32,000 nucleotides of DNA from Candidatus Electrothrix sp. GW3-4 (GTDB lineage: Bacteria > Desulfobacterota > Desulfobulbia > Desulfobulbales > Desulfobulbaceae), in contig NZ_CP147990.1 of assembly GCF_037902255.1 (NCBI RefSeq), positions 3,150,001-3,182,000 of the forward strand, in the 5' to 3' direction. Positions 3,795 to 29,253 of the stretch are shown one piece after another; position 1 is the first letter of the stretch, and each line of letters starts with the position of its first letter. A model generated the notes under the pieces. That model saw only the letters and a list, made by a program, of their open reading frames with translations, ran no database searches and was not told the DNA's origin. The translations under genes and the position numbers were made by a program.

Positions 3795-6700
3795 CTATCT
3801 GTACAGCCACACCCGCATCATAGAAAGCAGCCTCTCTACATCAACTGGTTTTGCCAGGTAATCACTGGCACCTGCTTCAAGACATTTATCCCGATCATCC
3901 TTCATCGCCTTGGCAGTTAAGGCAATAATCGGCAGCTTCCAAAACTGCTTTTGCTCCCGTATGCTCCTCGTTGCCTCATACCCGTCCATCTCCGGCATCA
4001 TGATATCCATCAGCACGATATCAATGCCCTCTTCCTGGACCAGCATCTCTAATGCCTTTTTTCCATCTTCTGCGACAATCACTTCCATCCCCTTCTGCTC
4101 AAGAACCCCGGAAAGAGCAAAAACATTGCGCATATCGTCATCAACAAGAAGGACCTTTTTTCCCTGAAACATCTTGTCCCGATCATAGAGGTCAGCAATA
4201 ATTTGCTGTTGTTGAGCAGGCATGGTTTCCACCATTCTATGGAGAAAGAGTGAAGTCTCGTCAAGTAGCCGTTCCTGTGACCGAGCATCTTTAATAATAA
4301 TGGATTCTGAATACCTCTTCAGTTCACGTTCCTCTTCTCTGGTCAAATCCCTGCCGGTATAGATAATAACGGGAGGAATAACAAGATCAGCAGCGCCTGC
4401 CAATCGCTGCAGCAGTTCAATCCCGTTGCAGTCAGGAAGCCCAAGGTCCAGCACCATGCAGTCAAATCGTTGTGCTCCTAAGAGCTTCTCTACCTCTTTT
4501 CCTGTTCTGGCCTCAAAGGTTTCTGTGTCGCTATTTCCGACCAAATCGACCAAAACGCTTCGCAACTTATCGTCGTCCTCAACAACCAAGAGCTTCTTTA
4601 TCTTTTTATTGATAACAGACTCAAAACGATCAAAGGCCGCAATCAACTGCTCCCGAGTGACCGGCTTAGAAAGGAAACCAATAGCACCGAGGTTCATCGC
4701 CTTACGACTCACCTCTTCCGCAGACATCATATGGACGGGTATATGACGAGTGCTGGCATTGGACTTCAGGCTGCTCAGCACTGTCCAGCCATCAATCCCA
4801 GGCAATCGGATATCCAGAATAATTCCAGAAGGACGATATTGCTCAGCCAGTTGCAGCCCCTCTTCACCATTATCCGTCACCAGGGCCTTAAAGTCAGATT
4901 CATGACATTGGTCTAAAAGGATCTCAGCAAATTTGGGATCATCTTCAACAAGCAACATAACCCTGTCTTGGTCAGCAAGATGGTCTCGATCGTCCGGCAC
5001 TGCGAAGGGCCGAGCCCCAGCATCTCTCTCATCCGCCTGTGGAGATCCGGTGTTTGGAGCCACAACAGGTTCTGCCTGCTGTGGTTTATCGCCTTTTTCT
5101 GGCAAAGGTTCTGTGCCAAGAGGCAGATACAGGGTAAAGGTTGAGCCCTTTCCACGTTCACTGACCAACCCGATCTCTCCACCGAGCAAGGCAGCCAATT
5201 CTTTTGAAATTGAGAGGCCAAGACCGGTGCCACCGTACTTCCGGGCCGTTGAGCCATCTGCCTGCTGGAACGCCTCAAAGATAAAACGTTGTTTTTCTGC
5301 CGGGATGCCGATACCTGTATCCTTAACAGAAATGGCGATGGCCTGTTCAGGTTGCAAGGTCTCTGATTGAAGCCGTGCTGTTGCTGGCATCCGTGCAATC
5401 ATCAGCTCAATTCGGCCTTCTGCGGTGAACTTGATGCTATTACCGAGAAAATTTTTCAAAATCTGCTCAACACGTTTACGATCAGTGAAGATTGATTGCG
5501 GAAGATCATCGGCCAGGTTAACAGAAAAAACCACTCCCTTGTTTTCCGCCATATGTTTGAACAGGGTTTGGGCATTCTCCGCCAAATCAGTCAACGGAAC
5601 TTCTTCCACATCCTTGACGATCTGTCCTGCCTCAATCTTAGAGAGGTCCAGGATCTCGTTAATAAGATCTAAAAGATCATTGCCTGATTCAACAATGATA
5701 CCGGCTGATTTCTGCTGTTTTTCCGTCATATTGCCGTCCTTATTTGCGGCAAGGGATTGGGCAAGGAGTAACAGGCTATTCAGCGGGGTACGCAGTTCAT
5801 GGCTCATATTGGCCAAAAACTCAGATTTATATTTCGAGGCCAAAGCAAGATCCTTGGAACGTTCCTCTATTCGTTCCTTTGCCGCAAGAAGTTCTTCATT
5901 ACGTTTCTTTATTTTCTTCCTTTCCACCATCAGGGCTTCTGATTTCTCTTCAAGAGCAGCATTGGTTTCTTTGAGTTCTTCCTGCTGGCTTTCCAGCTCC
6001 TGCTGAAAGTTTTTCAGAGCGATCGTCTGGGACTCCAGTTCTTCGTTGGTTGCCATCAGCTCTTCACTCTGCTGCCTTAATTCCTCGGCCTGCTCGCGGG
6101 TCTCTCCCAGGAGTTCCTCTACTTCCTGTTTGCTTCGGGCAGAGCGGAAGGCTATGGCGATATGCTCGGTCACAGTATCCAGAAATTCCATCTGCTCATC
6201 TGTGATCTCTGCAAAAGCAGCAAACTCAAGCACCCCAAGTAATGCCTCTTCATGGAGAAAAGGAACCGCCAGAAGATTACAGGGTGATGCATCTCCCAAC
6301 GTAGAATTGATCCGGACATAATCTTCTGGAAGATCCGTGACCGAGATCATATTTTTCTCCAATGCGGCCTGCCCGGCAATCCCTTCGCCTATGGTTACCC
6401 TGCTATTGAGCCCCTTACGTTTATGAAAGGCATAACTCCCCTTCAGAGTCATGGTCTCTCCGCTGCGGTCAACAAGGTACAGGGAGGCCATCTGGACATT
6501 AAGGAGTTTGGCGAGATAAGCAATAATATTCATCGCCAAGGTCGAAATATCCTGCTCACCCCGCATCTGGTCAGAGAGTTCTGCCATTGCGGTTTTTTCA
6601 TGGAAATTTTTCGCCACTGTTTCCGCCATGCGGTCCAGGGCATTGGCCATCTGGCCGATCTCATCCGTACGCTGCATATTAAGGCGGCGGTGAAAATCAC

Positions 6701-7856
6701 CAGCAGCGATCCCGTCGGCTATTCCAGCCGCCTGGACAACAGGACGACTGATTGAGCGGACAATCAACCAGGCAATGACCCCAACAATAAAGAAGGTCAA
6801 AAGAAGACCTGTGAGAACCCATCTTGTAACCTTATTCTCCACATCAATACGGATTTCATTCACAGCGGTCCGGGACCGCATCGCCTCTGCCTCATCAGAT
6901 TCACAGATAAGCGCCCATCGGGCATCGAATACATCAACCGGTACCCAGGATGCAAGCACCCTCTTCCCGCGATAATCCAGGATAATTCCCGTCCCCTTTT
7001 CTCCCCCAATCGCATTTCTACTGGCCACCGTATTGACCTTATTCCCCTGCCGGAAGGACTCTACCCGACTGTAATTATCTGGATCCAAAACAGAATCTGA
7101 ACGCATATACCCATCTGCCCCCACGAGATAGGCCTCCAGCGACTCTGTCTTGCTCGAGGCCAGCTTGATCGTATTCCTCAAGGCCTCGGTGGAGGGCTGG
7201 ACAGCCAGATACCCAAGCTCCTCTTTTCTTTCTCCTGAACTGTCATATATCCGAGTAATCAGGAAAGCTGAGGGAAGGTTAGCCAACGGTGGGTAGGGCG
7301 CATAATCTCCAAAGGCAATCTCCCGCTCCTGCTCCGTACGAATCTGAGAATACGCCCTGCCAAGAGAGGTATTTTTTAAGGGATTCATGACCAATGACTT
7401 ACCGAGATCAGAGGACTTCTGCATAGAATAAATTATATCCCCGTCCCGATTGATCAGGTAAAGATTATTCCAGTCAAGGTGAACACAGAGGTACTGAAAA
7501 AGGACATCATTCAACAAGGCCAGAGAGTTCCACTCATCGCTTTCCACCGAATCTCTGGCCAGCCGGAACTCCCTGTCAACAGACTGGAATGTCTCCTGAA
7601 GCCATGAATTATCCCGTAACATGTACATCTGCCCTTCCATCGTCCGAAAAAAATAGGCTATCTGCTTTTCCTTTATGCTACACATGGTTGTGAGCTGATC
7701 ATGGGCAACATGCTCCACAGCCGCGACGCTTGTCTCACCAATGGTCTCAAAGCCCCTTGAGACAGTTAACCAGATCACAACGCTGATAAACAACAAAGGG
7801 AGTATTCCCATGCCGAGATGAGAGAAAATCAATTTTGCGCCCAGATTGAATCTCAT
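3795..7856 (-). CDS. Hybrid sensor histidine kinase: TM, ~330-aa periplasmic Cache-like domain, TM, HAMP, GAF, long coiled coil, HisKA, HATPase_c, then three receiver domains
   Basis: The H-box is FLANMSHELRTPLNS (His codon at 5799-5801). The ATPase G-boxes are DTGIGI and GGTGLGLSISK. The three REC domains are LLVEDD...ILDIRLPGIDG, LLVVEDD...VLDLGLPDCNG and VLLVDDD...LMDIMMPEMDG. I place the start at MRFNLGAKLIF (7856) because GGAGAAGAA lies immediately upstream. The longer ORF from 7964 would overlap the upstream gene. Confidence 0.9.
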   Translation of the reverse strand: MRFNLGAKLIFSHLGMGILPLLFISVVIWLTVSRGFETIGETSVAAVEHVAHDQLTTMCSIKEKQIAYFFRTMEGQMYMLRDNSWLQETFQSVDREFRLARDSVESDEWNSLALLNDVLFQYLCVHLDWNNLYLINRDGDIIYSMQKSSDLGKSLVMNPLKNTSLGRAYSQIRTEQEREIAFGDYAPYPPLANLPSAFLITRIYDSSGERKEELGYLAVQPSTEALRNTIKLASSKTESLEAYLVGADGYMRSDSVLDPDNYSRVESFRQGNKVNTVASRNAIGGEKGTGIILDYRGKRVLASWVPVDVFDARWALICESDEAEAMRSRTAVNEIRIDVENKVTRWVLTGLLLTFFIVGVIAWLIVRSISRPVVQAAGIADGIAAGDFHRRLNMQRTDEIGQMANALDRMAETVAKNFHEKTAMAELSDQMRGEQDISTLAMNIIAYLAKLLNVQMASLYLVDRSGETMTLKGSYAFHKRKGLNSRVTIGEGIAGQAALEKNMISVTDLPEDYVRINSTLGDASPCNLLAVPFLHEEALLGVLEFAAFAEITDEQMEFLDTVTEHIAIAFRSARSKQEVEELLGETREQAEELRQQSEELMATNEELESQTIALKNFQQELESQQEELKETNAALEEKSEALMVERKKIKKRNEELLAAKERIEERSKDLALASKYKSEFLANMSHELRTPLNSLLLLAQSLAANKDGNMTEKQQKSAGIIVESGNDLLDLINEILDLSKIEAGQIVKDVEEVPLTDLAENAQTLFKHMAENKGVVFSVNLADDLPQSIFTDRKRVEQILKNFLGNSIKFTAEGRIELMIARMPATARLQSETLQPEQAIAISVKDTGIGIPAEKQRFIFEAFQQADGSTARKYGGTGLGLSISKELAALLGGEIGLVSERGKGSTFTLYLPLGTEPLPEKGDKPQQAEPVVAPNTGSPQADERDAGARPFAVPDDRDHLADQDRVMLLVEDDPKFAEILLDQCHESDFKALVTDNGEEGLQLAEQYRPSGIILDIRLPGIDGWTVLSSLKSNASTRHIPVHMMSAEEVSRKAMNLGAIGFLSKPVTREQLIAAFDRFESVINKKIKKLLVVEDDDKLRSVLVDLVGNSDTETFEARTGKEVEKLLGAQRFDCMVLDLGLPDCNGIELLQRLAGAADLVIPPVIIYTGRDLTREEERELKRYSESIIIKDARSQERLLDETSLFLHRMVETMPAQQQQIIADLYDRDKMFQGKKVLLVDDDMRNVFALSGVLEQKGMEVIVAEDGKKALEMLVQEEGIDIVLMDIMMPEMDGYEATRSIREQKQFWKLPIIALTAKAMKDDRDKCLEAGASDYLAKPVDVERLLSMMRVWLYR

Positions 7857-7866
7857 ATTCTTCTCC

Positions 7867-8862
7867 TCAGGAGAGAGCCTTTTCCTGCAAGGCATTTTTT
7901 CCTTGATAGACGACAACCCGATTCCGGCCGCTTTCTTTTGCCTGATACAAGGCCTCATCGGCAAAAGAAATCATACAGCTTGCGGTTTGATGCACTTCTT
8001 TATTATAGGAGGTCACCCCTATGCTTACGGTGATTTTCACAGCATAGTTTCTGTCATCAATCATTGTTTCTTCACATTTCCGACGTATTTTTTCGGCGGT
8101 CTTTGCGGCACCGCCCGCACCAGTCAGAGGTAAAAGGACAATGAACTCTTCCCCACCGAAACGAAACACCAGGTCAGACTTTCGAACCGTTGTTCGCAGA
8201 AGAGTAGAAAACGCTTTCAGTACATAATCACCAAACTCGTGCCCAAAATTATCATTGATGTTTTTAAAATGATCAAGATCAAGCATGATCAGAGAGAGCT
8301 CTGTTCCATGCCGGCAACAACGATTGAATTCCTGCTCCAGAGAAGCAACAAGATGACGACGATTACAAAGCCCTGTCAGATCATCATGGGTTGAAAGCCG
8401 TTGCAACTGCCTATTCTGCTTCAAAACCAATTTCTTGGTCTTCTCAAGCTCCTGAATAGTCTCTTTCAGCTTGATTTTCTGGAGATATATCTCAATAAAA
8501 AATTGTATCTTCCCTGCAAGGATTTCCGGAGAAAAAGGTTTGGTAATAAAATCAACCGCCCCGGAATCGTATCCTTTAAAAATATGAAAATCGTCGGAAT
8601 AAATAGCGGAGAGAAAAATGATAGGGAGCTTCGAGGTCTGTTTTCGATTCCTGATCAGTTGAGCCAGTTCGTACCCGTCCATTTCGGGCATCTGCACATC
8701 GAGAATCGCCAAAGCGAAATCGTGCGTCAAGGCCTCACGAAGGGCATCATTACCACTGGTTGCCTTAATAAAGGTAGCACCAACGCCACTAAAAGTTTCC
8801 TCCAACGCAATGAGATTATTTATCTTATCGTCAACAATCAGTATATCAACCGTATCAACCAT
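7867..8862 (-). CDS. Response regulator-diguanylate cyclase (REC-coiled coil-GGDEF, PleD/WspR-like)
   Basis: The REC domain reads ILIVDDK...ILDVQMPEMDGYEL...K. The GGDEF domain has an intact GGEEF active site, and an RxxD I-site (RKSD) sits 5 residues upstream of it. The gene ends 10 nt before the kinase start. Confidence 0.9.
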   Translation of the reverse strand: MVDTVDILIVDDKINNLIALEETFSGVGATFIKATSGNDALREALTHDFALAILDVQMPEMDGYELAQLIRNRKQTSKLPIIFLSAIYSDDFHIFKGYDSGAVDFITKPFSPEILAGKIQFFIEIYLQKIKLKETIQELEKTKKLVLKQNRQLQRLSTHDDLTGLCNRRHLVASLEQEFNRCCRHGTELSLIMLDLDHFKNINDNFGHEFGDYVLKAFSTLLRTTVRKSDLVFRFGGEEFIVLLPLTGAGGAAKTAEKIRRKCEETMIDDRNYAVKITVSIGVTSYNKEVHQTASCMISFADEALYQAKESGRNRVVVYQGKNALQEKALS

Positions 8863-22265: not shown

Positions 22266-22961
22266 TCACGACTTAATTTTAGGGTAAACGGATTTTAATT
22301 TGCACCGGGCATCAGAAATTTTCATTTGCCACTCAACACCACGTTGAGTGTTATTCACATCGCTTGACCATGCGGCAATCTCTTTCTGTAACGTCTCGAT
22401 ATCTCCTATACGACGATTGGCAAGACATTGTCGAGTCATGGAGCTCAATTCGTTTTCTGCTATATTGAGCCAGCTACCATGTTTCGGTGTGTAACAAAAT
22501 TCAATCCGGCGTACTAATGCACGAGCACGTTCAGGAGGAAAAGCCTCATAAAAAGCTCCCTTTGTATGGGTGTTGAGATTATCGCAAACCAACGTTATCT
22601 TTTCACATTCTGCATAGCGACCTTCAAGGAGGCGAGCCACTTCGATCGCCCAATCTGTTTTAGTCCGCCGAGGACGAGCTGTGGCTTCACGCCAGCCTGA
22701 AAGAGGCTCGGTGAACATGAAAATACTGGCTGTTCCGTTACGCTCATACTCATAATCAACGCGTTTAGCATGATTTTTAGTTGCCGGGATAGGTAAACGA
22801 GTTTCCTTTATCAGCTGAACTGGTTGTTCGTCCATACAAAGAAAAGGATGATTAGGATTATACGGTCTTTCATAAACCTCTATCACATCTTCCATGTTGG
22901 CCACGAATTCCGCATCGTGTTTTGGTGGAATAACCCAGTATTGGATTTTCCGGTTGTTCAT
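22266..22961 (-). CDS. IS630 transposase, DDE catalytic part (orfB)
   Basis: The candidate catalytic residues are LCMDEQPV (D), LVCDNLNTH (D) and LNIAENELS (E). The D...D-35-E spacing is characteristic of IS630/Tc1. Confidence 0.85.
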   Translation of the reverse strand: MNNRKIQYWVIPPKHDAEFVANMEDVIEVYERPYNPNHPFLCMDEQPVQLIKETRLPIPATKNHAKRVDYEYERNGTASIFMFTEPLSGWREATARPRRTKTDWAIEVARLLEGRYAECEKITLVCDNLNTHTKGAFYEAFPPERARALVRRIEFCYTPKHGSWLNIAENELSSMTRQCLANRRIGDIETLQKEIAAWSSDVNNTQRGVEWQMKISDARCKLKSVYPKIKS

Positions 22962-23416
22962 CCCGTTTTTTTTATTACTTGGCGAATAGTTTCATGGCTG
23001 ATCGACGGAACTATTTCCAATTCAACAACATGTCGGGCTAAAAGGCGCAGTGACCAATTTGCGTATCCCGGCGGAGGTGAACCAAGACGAGTGGCAATGA
23101 TTTTAACCTCCTGCTCCCCATTCAATAGTTTCGGAGTAGGCGGGGTTGCACGTTTTTTTCCGTCAAGAGCCTGTTGAAAACCGTGCAAAACAAAATTTTG
23201 ACGGATGTTCTCAACCGTTTTTGTCCTACAGTTGAATGCTTCTGCTATCCTGCTGTCTTTCCAACAGGGGCCATTTGCATCAGCTTTCAATAAGATGTGA
23301 GCACGACGGACTTTCTGGCTGCCCCCCGAAAGCTTTTTGATAACCTCCTGTAAATGACAGCGTTCTTTTGGAGTCAATTGGACAATGTATTTTTTTGGCA
23401 TGAAATCCTCTTTCAA
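22958..23416 (-). CDS. IS630 transposase, N-terminal HTH/DNA-binding part (orfA)
   Basis: 152 aa with helix-turn-helix segments (RRAHILLKADANG; SHETIRQVIKK). It ends in an A8 run (T8 at 22966-22973 on the plus strand) followed by an ATGA overlap with orfB. This is the typical -1 frameshift arrangement. Confidence 0.85.
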   Translation of the reverse strand: MKEDFMPKKYIVQLTPKERCHLQEVIKKLSGGSQKVRRAHILLKADANGPCWKDSRIAEAFNCRTKTVENIRQNFVLHGFQQALDGKKRATPPTPKLLNGEQEVKIIATRLGSPPPGYANWSLRLLARHVVELEIVPSISHETIRQVIKKTG

Positions 23417-23485: not shown

Positions 23486-23764
23486 CTAGGCAACAACGAG
23501 CAACTGGGTGGAACCTTTCACTATCGCATAAAACTCACAGTTTCGGCATTCAAGGAACCTTCCAGAGAGGTTACCTTTTTCCCCAACCTTACAGTATGAA
23601 TCGCTGATAACCCAACAGCAGCGCCCTCCATTCTTCCCCTGATGGATACCGTTTGCTCTGGATTCGATCGCAGCTGGACAGACACCCTCCTTAGATGCGT
23701 TCAAACCACCAGGCTCCCTCCCACATTTCTTGAATTCCCAGCAATTTATCCTTTTATATTCCAT
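23486..23764 (-). CDS. Small cysteine-rich protein of the 'two-CW' type (92 aa, 8 Cys)
   Basis: The sequence is MEYKRINCWEFKKCGREPGGLNASKEGVCPAAIESRANGIHQGKNGGRCCWVISDSYCKVGEKGNLSGRFLECRNCEFY... It shows an NCWEFKKCGRE...CPA...GGRxCW...C...CxxCxFY pattern, which I recognise from memory as the two-CW domain. That recognition is not verified by search. Confidence 0.55.
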   Translation of the reverse strand: MEYKRINCWEFKKCGREPGGLNASKEGVCPAAIESRANGIHQGKNGGRCCWVISDSYCKVGEKGNLSGRFLECRNCEFYAIVKGSTQLLVVA

Positions 23765-23923: not shown

Positions 23924-23961
23924 TAAAAAAACGGGCAAAGAAGTCAACGCCTCCTTGTCCG
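23924..23961 (-). terminator. Rho-independent terminator of the AsnB-like operon (minus strand)
   Basis: On the minus strand, CGGACAAGGAGG-cgttga-CTTCTTTGCCCG (12-position stem with 1 GU pair and 2 mismatches) is followed by TTTTTTTATTG. Confidence 0.6.
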
Positions 23962-24107: not shown

Positions 24108-25820
24108 TCACAGTTTTTCATTCAGCACCTTTTGCCGCCACAACTCGAAGGTTATTAAAAGCCACAAGGTCCGTTCATGCTGTGGCAAGCTCTGTTCAGG
24201 TGTGAGTGCGAGCAGCTCTTCAACCCGCTCTGGATTAAAAATCCCTGCCTTCCTCACCACTCTTTTCCGCAAAATCTTTCGAGCATATTTTTTCCACTCT
24301 CTACCTCGCCAGAAATAAGACGGAAACTCCACCCCACTCTTTGCCCGCTCAATAAAGTGGTTAGGCAAAGACGGACTATACGCTTGCCGAATAACCCTTT
24401 TTCCCATACCTCGAGCGAGTTTCAGCGCGGAGGGCATCCGAAAACTCAGAGCGATTAATCGCTCATCAAAAAGGGGAGAGAGTGACGTCACCCCATATGC
24501 CCCAATCATCCTCTCCATGAGAGGCAGCTGCATATGACCGCCCTTCAAGTGGATATTCGCACGAGAAAGCTTATCAAGAAAATTTCCTGTTCGATCTGCT
24601 TGAAAAAAAGGCAGTAACGGGCCCTCAAGAGCCTCATGGGTATTATAGAGACTGCGCCATTCCGGGGTTAGCAGGGCATTCAGCTCGTCATAGGCGCCAC
24701 AGCAGGAAGAAAGATATGCCTGTTCACGAAAAAAGAGCCCCTGCTCAATCCCCCCATACCAATGTCGCAACAGCACAGGGAGCATATGGGTACCGCCAAA
24801 GACCAAGGAACCACCCGCCCCATTTAGAACATATTCCACCTCCTCAGCCGCAACTGCGGAAAGCATAGACATGAAGACCAACGAGGGGTCACCAAGGGGT
24901 TCACCAGTAGCAAAAACAGCCTGGTCAAGACGTTCCAGGAACTCCTTGGGCTGGACCTGAATTTCCCGGTGTTCAGTCCCAATATAATCAGCTAGGGCTC
25001 TGGCATGATCCCTGCCCTGGTGCTCGCCACTGAAACGAATCGACCAACTCGGCAATTTTTCTCTGCATTGCCTGCGTGCCTCTACAGCAATAGCACCAGA
25101 GCTGAGCCCTCCAGAAAGAAAAAGACCGACAGAACCATGAACAGGTAACTGATCTGCAAGAGCTTGGCCGTGCAGAGAGGTAAATTCCGCTTGCCATTCC
25201 TGCCCACTCCTCTCCTCCTTGCCTACCTGCTCAGGAGAGCAAAAACAGCGCGGTTGTCCAAGCTTTCCCTGGGCAAAGGTCACTGTATGACCAGGAGGAA
25301 GCTCCCAGAGATTCTCCAGCATGGTCCCTGAACCTGGGACAAAGCCATAGGAAAGATACTGCGCTACCGCTGCCGGTCGTAGCTTACGGGCAAAACCGGA
25401 CCACGCCAATATCCCCCTGGGTTCAACAGCAAAGATAAAGCGGTCGTTGCACAAGCCGTAATAGATCGTACGGAGCCCAGCAGGGTCCCGAGCGAGATGA
25501 ATACCATCCTCATCCAACACAGCAAGCACATAGGCGCCGCGCAGATCCTGCACAAACCCCAAGCCCTTTTCCCTATAACTACGCAGGAGCGGGGCCATAT
25601 GCGTTTTTTTCTGATCGGTGAAAAGACGACCAGCAAGGGCAACAACCTGGCCTCGGTGCTCAATAATACCACCATGATTGGAACGGGAAGGCAGCCAGCA
25701 GGCTGTTGAGCGAATTGAGGCATGGGTACGAGCCGGAGGATTTCCTCGATGACTCAATGCCTCTGCCATTGCCCGGCTCTTTTTCCCGCTCCACCCGGAA
25801 AAGCCAAAAATTGCGGCCAT
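24108..25820 (-). CDS. Asparagine-synthetase (AsnB)-like PP-loop amidoligase lacking the N-terminal Cys nucleophile
   Basis: 570 aa. Fold motifs of the Ntn glutaminase-like domain are retained (RGAYVLAVLDEDGIHLARDPAGLRTIYYG, FIFAVEPRGIL), but the N-terminus is MAAIFGF instead of MCGI. An in-frame TAG lies 4 codons upstream and AGGGAG is the RBS. The PP-loop is LFLSGGLSSGAIA. The usual SGEGADELFGGY is diverged to NGAGGSLVFGG. Confidence 0.8.
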   Translation of the reverse strand: MAAIFGFSGWSGKKSRAMAEALSHRGNPPARTHASIRSTACWLPSRSNHGGIIEHRGQVVALAGRLFTDQKKTHMAPLLRSYREKGLGFVQDLRGAYVLAVLDEDGIHLARDPAGLRTIYYGLCNDRFIFAVEPRGILAWSGFARKLRPAAVAQYLSYGFVPGSGTMLENLWELPPGHTVTFAQGKLGQPRCFCSPEQVGKEERSGQEWQAEFTSLHGQALADQLPVHGSVGLFLSGGLSSGAIAVEARRQCREKLPSWSIRFSGEHQGRDHARALADYIGTEHREIQVQPKEFLERLDQAVFATGEPLGDPSLVFMSMLSAVAAEEVEYVLNGAGGSLVFGGTHMLPVLLRHWYGGIEQGLFFREQAYLSSCCGAYDELNALLTPEWRSLYNTHEALEGPLLPFFQADRTGNFLDKLSRANIHLKGGHMQLPLMERMIGAYGVTSLSPLFDERLIALSFRMPSALKLARGMGKRVIRQAYSPSLPNHFIERAKSGVEFPSYFWRGREWKKYARKILRKRVVRKAGIFNPERVEELLALTPEQSLPQHERTLWLLITFELWRQKVLNEKL

Positions 25821-26389
25821 TACACTCCCTGCCTACTTGTCTTCTTTTGCCCAACGCTCCCTCTTTGCATCCACCAAGGAAGCCTCCGTGCGCTGCGGGT
25901 ACTCCATTGTTCCAACACCTCGGATAAGGTCCTCTTTTCATAAAGGGCCTGCCCACATATTGTTGCCATGATAGGGTAGGGCAGGATATCCAGGGGCGCC
26001 TTATACCCTTTTCTATCCAGTTGCAACGCCTTAAGAAAATGCATTTTCTCTACATGCTCAGGCCTAATACCAAGATCAATAACAACACGCCCCGACAATC
26101 TCTTTTTCTGGACCATTGCCATGCCAGCCTCACTGGCATCATGCAGCAGGTAAACAGGCAACGAGGCGTCCTCCTTAAGCATTTTTTGAGCACGTTGAAC
26201 AATATAGGCAGGGTAGCCGTCCCGCGAAAAGATCAGGGCATTCTGATCAGCATGAAAGCCGTTCCTGACCAACAAGTCCACCAAGAGGCGACGCTCAACT
26301 AGAATGATTCGTTCTACCCCATAGTCAAAAAGATCCTTTTCAGGAAACGCAGCAGGTGGTTCATGCAGGCTTGGCTGAAGGAGCAACAT
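25820..26389 (-). CDS. Hypothetical protein with a Spo11/TopoVI-A/JetD-like Toprim motif pattern (tentative)
   Basis: The motifs are ERIILVERRLLVDLLV (the hhhhE of Toprim), then ALIFSRDGYPAYIVQRAQKML...LPVYLLHDASEAGMAM, compared with the TopoVI-A pattern ...TGKGYPD..TR.FL..L....PVY.L.DxDPxG. The DxD is DAS here. The ATG at 26389 is preferred (GGAGGGG 7 nt upstream), while the track uses GTG 26419. Its stop overlaps the AsnB-like ATG (TAATG). Confidence 0.45.
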   Translation of the reverse strand: MLLLQPSLHEPPAAFPEKDLFDYGVERIILVERRLLVDLLVRNGFHADQNALIFSRDGYPAYIVQRAQKMLKEDASLPVYLLHDASEAGMAMVQKKRLSGRVVIDLGIRPEHVEKMHFLKALQLDRKGYKAPLDILPYPIMATICGQALYEKRTLSEVLEQWSTRSARRLPWWMQRGSVGQKKTSRQGV

Positions 26390-26826
26390 CTCATCTCCCC
26401 TCCATTGCCTGCTTGCCACAGCCTAACCATTTTTTTCAGCTGTCCCAAATCAGGAGGCATCTGTCGACGATACTGACGGACCAAGAGGCAAGGGCCAATC
26501 AACAGAACAAGACTAAGCAATCCACCAAGCCAACCGAACAAGAAAAAGCACGCAAAAAAAAGAGCGAGCAAAACAGCACCGATCCCGGCGATCCTTTTTC
26601 GCAACAGGGACATCTTTTCCTCGGCATTCTGCTGACACCAGGCGGTATAGAGCTGGGGAAAGGTAAAATAAAAACGACCATTCCCCCCAGCGCGGCGCAG
26701 AAGATGAACGAACTTGGCATCTGTCATCCCCTGAGCGGTTCTCGCGTGCAAGAGAAACCGGTACCCGCAAGGACAGCGAAGTTCGACATTTTTTTTTTGT
26801 TCAACACCGCATTCAGGACATCTCAT
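26314..26826 (-). CDS. Zinc-ribbon protein with two transmembrane helices
   Basis: It has an N-terminal CPEC...CPC zinc ribbon (MRCPECGVEQKKNVELRCPCGYRF) and a hydrophobic hairpin IAGIGAVLLALFFACFFLFGWLGGLLSLVLLIGPCLLV. Its last ~25 codons overlap the next ORF out of frame. Confidence 0.55.
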   Translation of the reverse strand: MRCPECGVEQKKNVELRCPCGYRFLLHARTAQGMTDAKFVHLLRRAGGNGRFYFTFPQLYTAWCQQNAEEKMSLLRKRIAGIGAVLLALFFACFFLFGWLGGLLSLVLLIGPCLLVRQYRRQMPPDLGQLKKMVRLWQAGNGGEMRCCSFSQACMNHLLRFLKRIFLTMG

Positions 26827-27286
26827 ACCGTTCTCTTCTCATCGGAAAGCCCCATTTATTTCCTTACATTTTCAGCAACCAGTCTTTAGTATCTTTTTTC
26901 AAAGCACTCTCAAAAGACCAATCTGACTTCCTCGAAAGCGCTCCCCCGGCCTGCGGCCAGGACCAAACTTCGAAATAACAGCGAGGTACACATCATGCTA
27001 CTTAGAAGAAGGAAGAGCATCCGCTTAGCAGACAAGCAATATAAAGTATCTATAATAATTGTCCAGCATTTCATTCAAATCCATAAGAACCGCAGGCTCC
27101 ATTTCTGACATCTTTTTTGCCCTATAACTTTCGGGCTTGGTTCTAACTTTCTTCTCACAGCGACGCAGACTATGTGGGGTTGAGCGTATGTTTTTCTGTG
27201 AATCTCGCCCCAATCTATGTTATATAAGAGGCACGTTGGGAATAATTTGAATCGCAGTTAGATGAATTCAATATAAGAGGAAGAAA

Positions 27287-27814
27287 ATGCAGAAAACTTC
27301 ATTAACACTCGGCCTGCTGGCGCTTATCGGTATCGTCTCACCATGTGGCATTCACGCCGCTACTCCTCCACCTCCAAATGCAGACGTCGATGTGGATATG
27401 ATGGCCAGGGAATATAAAGAGACTCCGAACGGCCCAGGAGCGTTAACCAAGGAAATGATTGAGGCCTGTGTTGTTCTGAAAATCGACATGGAAAAAGACG
27501 CCAGCAACCTAGATACCATCAGGGAAGAGCTGGGAAAGCTGAATAATGAAGTAAAAGATCTTGGAGCCTATCTCAAAAATAACAAAGGGCAGTTCGACGA
27601 AAACGACACCAGTGCTGCCCGCGCTGAATATGATGCCAAGGTAAAAGAATACAACTCCCGGATCCCTATCTTGAAAGAAAAAACTAAATCATACCAAGAC
27701 ATGATCAAGCCGTACAAAGAAAAAGAAGGTAAATTTGAACAGAATTGCAACAGCCAACCCTACTATGAAGACGACTACAAAGCGATAGAGAAAAAACTGG
27801 GCCGTGGCATGTAG
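27287..27814 (+). CDS. Secreted coiled-coil protein with two conserved Cys, paralogue 1 (unknown family)
   Basis: It has a signal peptide (MQKTSLTLGLLALIGIVSPCGIHA), GAGGAAG as RBS and Lys/Glu-rich helical sequence. By eye it aligns with 28738..29253 with a single one-residue gap. Confidence 0.7.
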   Translation: MQKTSLTLGLLALIGIVSPCGIHAATPPPPNADVDVDMMAREYKETPNGPGALTKEMIEACVVLKIDMEKDASNLDTIREELGKLNNEVKDLGAYLKNNKGQFDENDTSAARAEYDAKVKEYNSRIPILKEKTKSYQDMIKPYKEKEGKFEQNCNSQPYYEDDYKAIEKKLGRGM

Positions 27815-28005: not shown

Positions 28006-28461
28006 ATGCAAATAATAGATGTTCCGTTTTGCTGGCTTGATCCCGACAACAGTCGGGATCTTTCTTTACCCGCCTATGCAACCACACAAGCAGCCGGTAT
28101 GGATGCAGCGGCGGCCATCACCGAGGATATTACCCTTCAGCCCGGTGACATAAAACTCTTCCCCACCGGATTTGCAGTGGCCTTACCTGAGGGGCTTGAG
28201 ATGCAGGTGCGCCCGAGATCTGGTCTGGCGATAAAACACGGCGTCACCGTTATTAACGCGCCAGGAACTATCGATGCTGACTACCGAGGAGAGGTCAAAA
28301 TCGGCCTGATTAATCTTGGCCAGATGCCTTTTACCATCCAACGGGGCGACCGCATTGCCCAACTCGTTCTTGCGCCAGTATGCCACGCGCAAGTACAGTC
28401 AGTACGGGAGCTGGGAAAAACAGAGCGGGGTGACGGAGGATTCGGACATACTGGCAGATAA
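28006..28461 (+). CDS. dut: dUTP diphosphatase (trimeric dUTPase)
   Basis: The five Dut motifs can be recognised: [39 protein letters not shown] and [11 protein letters not shown]. Length is 151 aa. Confidence 0.93.
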
Positions 28462-28737: not shown

Positions 28738-29253
28738 ATGTCCACAGCAAAAGTATTCCTTACAGGTGTTATCACCTTGGCCATTATCGCCCCAAGTCTC
28801 AACCACGCCTCAGCTGAGACCTTACAGGCAGACACTGAAAAAACAGAGCGTAACTATCGCAAGACAAAAACAGGTGCAGGCGCCCTCACCCTAAAAATGC
28901 TTGAAGCCTGCATACAACTCAAAGCAGAGGCCGAGCAAGAGTATAAACAAATCAACGCTTCCAAGGAAGAATATGACGCGCTCAATAACGAGGTCAGTGA
29001 CCTTGCAGCATCCCTGCAAGAAAGCAAGGAACAGTTAGATAACAAGGACGAAAAGGCCGTTGATGCACATAATGAGCAGGTTGAGCTCTATAACCAAAAG
29101 GTGGAAGAGCTCAAGGCGATGGAAACATCATATAATGAAAAGAGCGAACCTTATCAAAAAAAGGCCGACCAACTCGAAAAAGAATGCAATGGCCAGTCCT
29201 ATTATGAAGACGACTACGCCGAAGCAGTGAAAAAGACAGGAAAAACCCTGTAA
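28738..29253 (+). CDS. Secreted coiled-coil protein with two conserved Cys, paralogue 2
   Basis: It has a signal peptide (VFLTGVITLAIIAPSLNHASA) and GAAAGGAG as RBS. With 27287..27814 it shares GALT.xM.EAC..LK, LNNEV.DL, SY...PY, CN.Q.YYEDDY and KK.G. Confidence 0.7.
   Translation: MSTAKVFLTGVITLAIIAPSLNHASAETLQADTEKTERNYRKTKTGAGALTLKMLEACIQLKAEAEQEYKQINASKEEYDALNNEVSDLAASLQESKEQLDNKDEKAVDAHNEQVELYNQKVEELKAMETSYNEKSEPYQKKADQLEKECNGQSYYEDDYAEAVKKTGKTL

Follow-up and report, generated by a model that had tools for sequence, protein, structure and literature searches.

Asparagine synthetase-like enzymes are known to act on the ends of peptides: PesC, TsrC, ScdTA, and AsnO adenylate peptide C-terminal carboxylates and work with a functional glutaminase domain and glutamine-derived ammonia (PMC13060819). 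Here, we describe an AsnB-like protein and its partner in the cable bacterium Candidatus Electrothrix sp. GW3-4, encoded within a 32,000-nucleotide (nt) stretch of contig NZ_CP147990.1 (positions 3,150,001 to 3,182,000), which we will call the window. The locus is an operon of two genes, both on the minus strand. One encodes the AsnB-like protein and the other a protein, here referred to as c0, that combines a zinc ribbon, a transmembrane (TM) hairpin, and a Toprim domain of the type found in topoisomerase VI subunit A (TopoVI-A) and Spo11. Taken as a whole, we favor, without great certainty, the reading that the locus is a degenerate two-gene duplicate of a larger cassette, in which a c0 that is split here and an AsnB-like pseudoenzyme would form a non-catalytic complex. 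A prior reading of this DNA from its letters alone (here, the original prediction) had proposed a three-gene operon with a loose resemblance to defense modules; its observations are partly confirmed, and its interpretation is partly supported.

The c0 gene is represented in the window by two open reading frames (ORFs), ORF1 and ORF2, both annotated in GenBank as hypothetical proteins (WGN25_14100, WYD83089.1, 170 amino acids [aa], and WGN25_14095, WYD83088.1, 189 aa). An exact-protein lookup of ORF3, the AsnB-like gene, retrieved a 2927-bp Logan contig from SRR28154589 (L001) that is identical to the window at 2926/2926 aligned bases by blastn. The sole difference is a single indel, an extra G, such that the G run reads GGAGGGGGAG in L001 and GGAGGGGAG in the window. 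In the L001 allele, with five G residues, ORF1 and ORF2 are fused into one uninterrupted ORF of 335 aa. Homologs have the same form: 48 database homologs of the ORF2 segment are 280 to 335 aa long and cover both halves (fragments aside), and a library-wide profile search returned 1275 representatives at 50% identity, 528 of them with E ≤ 1e-30, with end-to-end matches of ~300 to 335 aa for nearly all of the 150 representatives listed. The putative Shine-Dalgarno sequence of ORF2 (GGAGGGGAG) and its ATG are internal Gly-Gly-Gly-Asp-Glu-Met codons of c0. Given the intact frame in L001 and the single-ORF homologs, the proposed three-gene operon is one of two genes, and the 76-nt out-of-frame overlap of ORF1 and ORF2, which had been taken as tight packing, is a frameshift inside one gene. 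The public annotation is thereby corrected: WGN25_14100 and WGN25_14095 are halves of a single gene, and the entries need either a fix or a frameshift flag. Other structural details of the original prediction were all found, namely, the ORF positions, the TAATG shared by the Toprim and AsnB-like genes, the position of the terminator, and the in-frame stop upstream of ORF3. The AsnB-like gene is translationally coupled to the Toprim gene through the TAATG overlap.

A separate Logan assembly of c0 (P0001) carries two more frame changes in the N-terminal half of the gene (window ~26490 to 26720), probably at G6 and T8 runs. Homopolymer runs at this locus are therefore error-prone across assemblies.

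All c0 homologs share one layout, consisting of the zinc ribbon (CPxC...CxCGY), the TM hairpin, and the Toprim domain. The zinc ribbon, together with a short helical module that follows it, and the Toprim domain are both cytoplasmic and are anchored to the membrane by the TM hairpin. The zinc ribbon and hairpin that had been recognized in ORF1 are thus real but are part of c0 rather than a separate protein. The identity of the Toprim domain is supported by several comparisons. PF21180 (TOP6A-Spo11_Toprim) matches at 30.6 to 32.2 bits against a cutoff of 24.1, and does so in 16/16 aligned family members. When compared with the PDB, the c0 family profile aligns with residues 196 to 267 of S. shibatae TopoVI-A (2zbk_A; E, 7e-6), pairing ERILIVERDLLV with EFVLVVEKDAVF and LPVYLLHDAT with LPVYILTDAD. 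An AlphaFold2 (AF2) model of c0 (pLDDT, 81; pTM, 0.80) has TopoVI-A chains as its best Foldseek matches in the PDB (probability ~1; E, 0.02 to 0.1; ~100 aligned columns) and also matches the small Toprim protein 2fcj; the E values are weak because the whole protein was used as the query. Profile, model, and structure search thus agree with the earlier assignment of the 189-aa segment to a Spo11/TopoVI-A-type Toprim domain with DAS in place of DxD and no 5Y-CAP domain.

The catalytic features of such domains are poorly kept in c0. In the window protein, E178 is retained and D230-A-S replaces DxD, leaving the canonical metal-binding combination of Glu and DxD incomplete. Across the family, where scorable, the Glu position is occupied by E in 64 members, Q in 23, D in 8, N in 3, and S in 1, and the DxD position mostly reads DAT, DAS, or DST. 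The residues that are invariant in the family are E172, R179, D184, N189, H192, GYP204-206, H229, D230, D251, and D280. No 5Y-CAP winged helix with a catalytic Tyr was found in c0, the N-terminal part of the AF2 model consisting of the zinc ribbon, a helix, a short strand, and the TM hairpin, and NCBIfam TopoVI-A models score the window protein at only 14 to 31 bits against cutoffs of 424 to 675. Because the 5Y-CAP domain is missing and neither the Glu nor the DxD is conserved across the family, the c0 Toprim domain is not likely to cleave DNA. The gene is under purifying selection, with dN/dS values for the two genes of the operon lying between 0.13 and 0.18.

One family member, P0257, has four tandem zinc-ribbon/helix N-modules ahead of a single Toprim domain, and the N-module is therefore an autonomous unit. 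A faint WHD_MCM8 match in P0257 raised the candidate of a cryptic 5Y-CAP/winged-helix N-module, which we rejected, as AF2 shows only the zinc ribbon, a helix, and a short strand.

The second gene encodes a protein with the fold of an asparagine synthetase. Pfam Asn_synthase (PF00733) matches at 1e-48, accompanied by a weak GATase_7 match, and the AF2 model (pLDDT, 88; pTM, 0.90) gives Foldseek TM scores of 0.79 to TsnB9 (7ylz), 0.64 to Escherichia coli AsnB (1ct9), and 0.56 to 0.66 to AsnB/human ASNS, beta-lactam synthetase, and CarA. Its N terminus, MAAIFG, is made firm by an in-frame TAG five codons ahead of the ATG. The two-domain AsnB layout without a glutaminase Cys, as first read from the sequence, is borne out by these results. 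Loss of Cys2 is clade-wide, the N terminus of the relatives reading M[GAS]A[IL]FGF, which answers a question that the original prediction had raised. The clade itself is discrete, with members scoring at least 382 bits and the next match, a generic asparagine synthase, scoring 151. Neither the window protein nor the canonical members of the clade reach the cutoff of any NCBIfam model. The window protein scores 157 against 267.1 for TIGR01536, 97.9 against 525 for the lasso-peptide cyclase model NF033535, and 47.8 against 300 for the macrolactam cyclase model NF033561. For TIGR03104 and TIGR03108 (XrtA/PEP-CTERM amidotransferase), the values are 167.6 against 570.1 and 159.2 against 816.9, with canonical members below the cutoffs as well.

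Within this clade, the window protein belongs to a sub-clade in which the synthetase site is eroded. Canonical members have SGG[LI]DSS, NGEGGDPxFGGP, and RPKS. In the sub-clade of the window protein (Electrothrix "clade 1" plus the locus L032), the first two motifs read SGGL[S/A/C/G]S and NG[A/V/I/T/Q]G, and RPKS has variably lost its Lys. The degenerate positions correspond to D238, E348, and D351 of E. coli AsnB, and the residues found there vary between species. The PP-loop had been described as retained, yet SGGLSS is without the canonical Asp; the divergence noted for the GEGADE segment is genuine, as the segment reads NGAGGS and both the Glu and the Asp of GEGxD are gone. The dN/dS of the gene is 0.13 to 0.15, indicating purifying selection. 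Because the catalytic residues are lost and variable while the gene is constrained to this degree, the AsnB-like protein of the Electrothrix sub-clade is probably a pseudoenzyme, with a dead N-terminal nucleophile (Ntn) glutaminase domain and a degenerate synthetase domain. This call is built on several combined losses, which differ between species.

The two genes belong together well beyond Electrothrix. We assembled 51 c0-seeded loci from GTDB genomes and metagenomes, of which 43 were informative, and an AsnB-clade gene lies within ~640 nt of c0 in 37/43. The paired loci come from Desulfobacterota, Planctomycetota, Myxococcota, and Proteobacteria, so that the co-conservation in unrelated genomes about which the original prediction had asked is found in several phyla. 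A Riflebacteria locus with a c0/AsnB-like pair was found separately, via the AsnB-like protein, and the sole Verrucomicrobiales locus (L024) has a cupin gene and c0 with no adjacent AsnB-like gene. The cassette to which the pair belongs is spread over at least six phyla; in its canonical form, it contains a cupin, c0, a TPR lipoprotein (YbgF/BamD-like), and the AsnB-like protein, often along with a sodium:solute symporter (SSF). A 4-nt overlap joins the cupin gene to c0 in several loci, and the SSF gene adjoins the pair in L007, L008, L010, L025, L033, and L035; neither the cupin gene nor the SSF gene is found in more than a minority of loci. In P0210, c0 is fused to a TPR module through an extra TM segment. 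Literature searches found no description of a system joining Toprim, asparagine synthetase, and cupin or PP-loop proteins, nor of an Electrothrix asparagine synthase system. The absence of any described system with this combination, as first suggested, thus holds for PADLOC, the NCBIfam cutoffs, and the literature, and the underlying cassette appears to be undescribed.

Electrothrix species have two paralogous pairs, and both are present in E. marina and E. aarhusensis. The canonical paralog comprises an SSF gene and c0 together with a convergent TPR/AsnB-like pair, and the second, as in the window, is reduced to c0 and the AsnB-like gene. The window c0 is ~44% identical to the canonical Electrothrix paralog versus 30 to 37% to copies from other phyla, and for the window AsnB-like protein the corresponding values are ~59% and 36 to 44%. 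That both proteins are closer to the Electrothrix paralog indicates duplication of the pair as a unit. No cupin, TPR, or SSF gene lies near the window pair, its c0 has no tail (see below), and its adenylation motif is not intact. On these sequence comparisons, the window pair is a derived, reduced duplicate of the cassette. Two loci elsewhere look like decay: in an Electrothrix locus (L009, 5831 to 8173), c0 is present in tandem, with one copy in fragments and no AsnB-like gene in the vicinity, and in a Pirellulaceae locus (L031, 9929 to 10965), c0 is in pieces beside a truncated cupin gene.

The C terminus of c0 may offer a link between the two proteins. Across the family, 148/177 members end in [FY]G-COOH and 150/177 in Gly, and the terminal [FY]G is preceded by an acidic, Ser/Gly-rich tail. 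The window c0 ends in ...RQGV without [FY]G, and AF2 confidence is low at its C terminus. At every locus scorable for both features, a canonical AsnB-like gene is accompanied by a c0 ending in Gly and a degenerate AsnB-like gene by a tail-less c0. Outside the Electrothrix sub-clade, a tail-less c0 stands alone, with no AsnB-like neighbor.

For the canonical cassette, we envisage an AsnB-like enzyme that would activate a carboxylate by adenylation and convert it to an amide; having no glutaminase, it would depend on ammonia or some other amine. The most attractive substrate would be the C-terminal Gly of its Toprim partner c0. The window pair, which has lost the tail and the catalytic residues as well as the cupin and TPR genes and yet remains under constraint, would instead persist as a membrane-associated complex without catalysis that serves in binding, regulation, or scaffolding.

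The surroundings of the pair (Table 1) are largely those of a conserved chromosomal region. The gene order conserved among Electrothrix is coiled-coil lipoprotein, c0, AsnB-like protein, two-CW protein, SLT-LysM protein, and BrkB; other genes in the window include dut, recA, cinA, and panE, and the flanks consist of conserved core genes, among them dut, recA, cinA, and SLT-LysM. The IS630 element reported near the operon is real and sits between the two-CW and SLT-LysM genes. It is absent from orthologous Electrothrix loci, where the two-CW gene is directly followed by the SLT-LysM gene, and it is therefore a recent insertion specific to the GW3-4 genome. What had been called the only accessory-looking patch of the window hence has a gene order conserved among Electrothrix, with the IS630 element alone being genome-specific, and we rejected an accessory island on these grounds. 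PADLOC-DB 2.0, including its Qat and Wadjet JetD entries, gave no matches to the window proteins at E ≤ 1 or to the canonical cassette proteins at E ≤ 0.1, and no relative is encoded in 2.9 million viral contigs. A defense reading is unsupported because of these two results, and the proposed link to defense or mobile genes also finds no counterpart in the core-gene flanks or in the usual companions of the cassette, namely, cupin, TPR lipoprotein, and symporter genes.

Several other features were observed in the window. In four Electrothrix loci, the AsnB-like gene is immediately followed by the gene for the small, Cys-rich two-CW protein, which in the window lies behind the terminator with a promoter-like site of its own. 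Two paralogous secreted coiled-coil proteins, each with a signal peptide and a C-terminal CNxQPYYEDDY, flank a dUTPase-like ORF that was identified from its sequence only; the two proteins have no family match, and the arrangement recurs in other Electrothrix loci. A hybrid sensor kinase adjoins a receiver-GGDEF diguanylate cyclase, and the ~100-nt overlap of the two ORFs is probably an artifact of a kinase start placed at a TTG that lies too far upstream.

Table 1. Features of the c0/AsnB-like operon and of its surroundings, in window coordinates
Feature	Position	Strand	Size or motif	Remarks
c0 gene (zinc ribbon/TM hairpin/Toprim)	25820-26826	-	335 aa when intact	Split here into ORF1 and ORF2
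ORF1	26314-26826	-	170 aa	Half of the split gene
ORF2	25820-26389	-	189 aa from ATG; 199 aa with upstream GTG	
Frameshift site, G run	26397-26400	-	G4 here versus G5 in L001	Gly-Gly-Gly codons, residues 141-143; blastn
C4 zinc ribbon, N-terminal	26755-26826	-	C3, C6, C18, C20; CPEC...CPCGY	Alignments; AF2 strands in residues 1-35
Short helical module after the zinc ribbon	to ~26647	-	MTDxKF...YFTxxQLY	Alignments; AF2 helix 36-47
Two-helix TM hairpin	26473-26592	-	Residues ~79-118	AF2 helices 56-97 and 100-120; hydrophobic segments conserved in alignment
Top6A/Spo11-type Toprim domain	25928-26341	-	Residues ~163-300	PF21180, 2zbk_A profile match, Foldseek
Stop/start overlap, Toprim gene to AsnB-like gene	25818-25822	-	TAATG	Sequence
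AsnB-fold gene (ORF3)	24108-25820	-	570 aa	GenBank "asparagine synthase-related protein"
Degenerate PP-loop	25098-25115	-	SGGLSS	Canonical clade SGG[LI]DS; Asp position S, A, C, or G in sub-clade
Counterpart of canonical NGEGGD	24807-24824	-	NGAGGS	Compare E. coli AsnB GEGSDE (1ct9); E348 and D351 equivalents lost
Intrinsic-terminator-like hairpin and U run	~23925-23961	-	dG -18.7 kcal/mol; z -2.6	3' of AsnB-like gene
Sigma-70-like promoter match	27038-27065	-	TGGACA-16-TATATT	~210 nt upstream of first gene; consensus match only
IS630-family element	22266-23416			Helix-turn-helix (HTH) ORF 22958-23416; DDE ORF 22266-22961
Two-CW domain protein	23486-23764	-		NF045718, 1.4e-28
Secreted coiled-coil proteins (two paralogs)	27287-27814, 28738-29253	+	CNxQPYYEDDY	
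dUTPase-like ORF	28006-28461			
Hybrid sensor kinase	3795-8862	-	1389 aa	dCache-HAMP-GAF-HisKA-HATPase, three receiver-domain matches

Several observations count against a constrained, non-catalytic duplicate, and they have to be set beside other explanations of the same locus. The frameshift in c0 may reflect a fault of the assembly, heterogeneity in the population, or a genuine mutation. If it were fixed in strain GW3-4, the Toprim gene would be decaying, and the AsnB-like pseudoenzyme might be dispensable too. Such genuine pseudogenization fits the presence of the split in the deposited 4.64-Mb genome and a partner enzyme that is already catalytically degenerate; in addition, no other gene is broken in the rest of the window, so this assembly is not generally error-prone. 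We consider it somewhat unlikely, as an independent assembly that is identical at all other aligned positions keeps the intact frame, the different homopolymer indels in P0001 suggest sequencing noise at such runs, and other Electrothrix species have intact orthologs on which purifying selection acts. A programmed frameshift, slippage, or phase variation at the G run, by which a short zinc-ribbon/TM protein and the full-length fusion would both be made, might be suggested by the position of the shift in a homopolymer that overlaps a purine-rich stretch. All orthologs and paralogs are in frame, however, and because no homolog shares the shift, we rejected a programmed event; a run of four or five G residues is also short for phase variation, and the idea is barely credible. 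Hardly better placed, and in our view very improbable, is the defense-like module first proposed, in which an active PP-loop enzyme, a Toprim nuclease, and a separate zinc-ribbon membrane protein would act together. The Toprim and AsnB folds are real, an IS630 element is nearby, and GenBank does annotate three separate proteins. These points are set against the fusion of ORF1 and ORF2 in one gene, the loss of the PP-loop Asp and of the GEGxD Glu and Asp from the window protein, a Toprim Glu and DxD that are unconserved in a family without 5Y-CAP, the negative PADLOC and viral searches, and a core-gene synteny among Electrothrix whose orthologous loci are missing the IS630 element.

What the canonical cassette acts upon is a further point of contention, for we infer both the substrate and the complex from gene context, and the recurrent SSF symporter and cupin fit small-molecule chemistry equally well. 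The chief competitor of the c0 C-terminal Gly as the substrate is a small solute that the SSF symporter would bring in. In a small-molecule pathway, the AsnB-like enzyme would amidate or ligate a small carboxylate or an SSF-imported amine and the cupin would transform the product further, with c0 as a membrane scaffold or sensor, [FY]G as a docking motif, and the window pair as a non-catalytic remnant. The symporter beside the pair in six loci and the 4-nt coupling of cupin to c0 would be explained, and the best solved-structure match, TsnB9, is a small-molecule hydroxyamidotransferase, with NAGGN AsnO among the closest curated families. Against this stand the minority occurrence of the cupin and SSF genes, the failure of any curated pathway model to reach its cutoff, and the terminal Gly of 150/177 members, which together with its disappearance alongside the catalytic residues would go unexplained. 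We regard such a pathway as unlikely. The tail evidence itself has limits that also weigh on our preferred account: tail and catalytic residues were lost together in what amounts to a single evolutionary event (the Electrothrix clade plus L032), which makes for a weak correlation, and in L024, L026, and L031 a cupin-c0 arrangement without an adjacent AsnB-like gene keeps the [FY]G tail, so that the tail may have to do with the cupin or serve in docking. In addition, the E363A mutant of PesC keeps partial activity (PMC13060819), so that loss of the Glu alone is no proof of inactivity. A more specific proposal, that the canonical cassette is an unrecognized system for protein C-terminal modification, is speculative and quite improbable as it stands. 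There, a glutaminase-less, non-E1 enzyme of the PP-loop AsnB fold would adenylate the Gly of c0, with amidation or ligation to an amine to follow, in chemistry akin to ubiquitin activation or Cap2 priming, and the window pair would be a pseudoenzyme descendant that keeps only the protein-protein interaction.

The degenerate duplicate that we favor for the window is of use in its own right, as it provides a clear case of the passage from enzyme to pseudoenzyme with a co-evolving partner and a setting in which to ask why a dead AsnB fold is kept. More broadly, the c0 family comprises at least 528 clusters at 50% identity of a zinc-ribbon, membrane-anchored Toprim protein with a conserved [FY]G end, for which we found no description. 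Together with the discrete Cys-less AsnB-like clade, it defines a cassette across Planctomycetota, Desulfobacterota (cable bacteria), Myxococcota, and other phyla. If the tail is indeed the substrate, asparagine synthetase-like C-terminal chemistry would extend from the short peptides of ribosomally synthesized and posttranslationally modified peptide (RiPP) pathways to a full-size protein.

Compared with described systems, c0 resembles the Toprim domain of TopoVI-A and Spo11 (PF21180; 2zbk, 1d3y, 9o7o) in its above-threshold profile match, its predicted fold, and the motif order hhhhE...GYP...LPVYLLxD. It differs in having no 5Y-CAP/winged-helix domain with a catalytic Tyr and no Top6B partner, in the absence of the second Asp of DxD and the replacement of the Toprim Glu by Q, D, or N in many members, and in its TM-hairpin membrane anchor and preceding zinc ribbon. 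QatABCD and modules that pair a QueC-like protein with TatD likewise place a PP-loop superfamily protein beside a nuclease-associated fold; the present locus has no QueC-type protein, TatD, or QatA/B, no PADLOC match, and a different gene context.

The AsnB-like protein can be set beside beta-lactam synthetase, carbapenam synthetase, lasso-peptide cyclases, and TsnB9, in all of which the synthetase fold is kept alongside an N-terminal domain that is dead or has been repurposed. These enzymes retain SGGxDS and a catalytic Glu or Lys, whereas the window protein does not. It is also far below the lasso-peptide cyclase cutoff, and no gene for a lasso precursor or a B protein was seen beside the AsnB-like gene. 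A looser parallel, offered as an analogy only, is Cap2 of the cyclic oligonucleotide-based antiphage signaling system (CBASS), which reportedly primes the C terminus of its CD-NTase (work attributed to Ledvina et al. and Jenson et al., both 2023). There too, an operon-encoded adenylating enzyme would act on a neighbor's disordered, Gly-ending tail. Cap2 is of the E1/E2 type rather than of the PP-loop AsnB fold, and the loci described here have no CD-NTase, effector, or defense context.

Finally, the enzymes with which we began, the nitrile synthetase PesC, TsrC, ScdTA, and NAGGN AsnO/TIGR03104, differ from the AsnB-like clade in that the latter has no Cys2 and falls short of the TIGR03104 cutoff. 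The putative substrate here would be a 320-aa membrane protein rather than a short peptide, and the window copy is without the catalytic residues. The two-domain AsnB fold is common to both groups, the AsnB-like members of the canonical cassette likewise keep the PP-loop and GEGxD, and their c0 partner presents a conserved, exposed C-terminal carboxylate of the kind on which these enzymes act.

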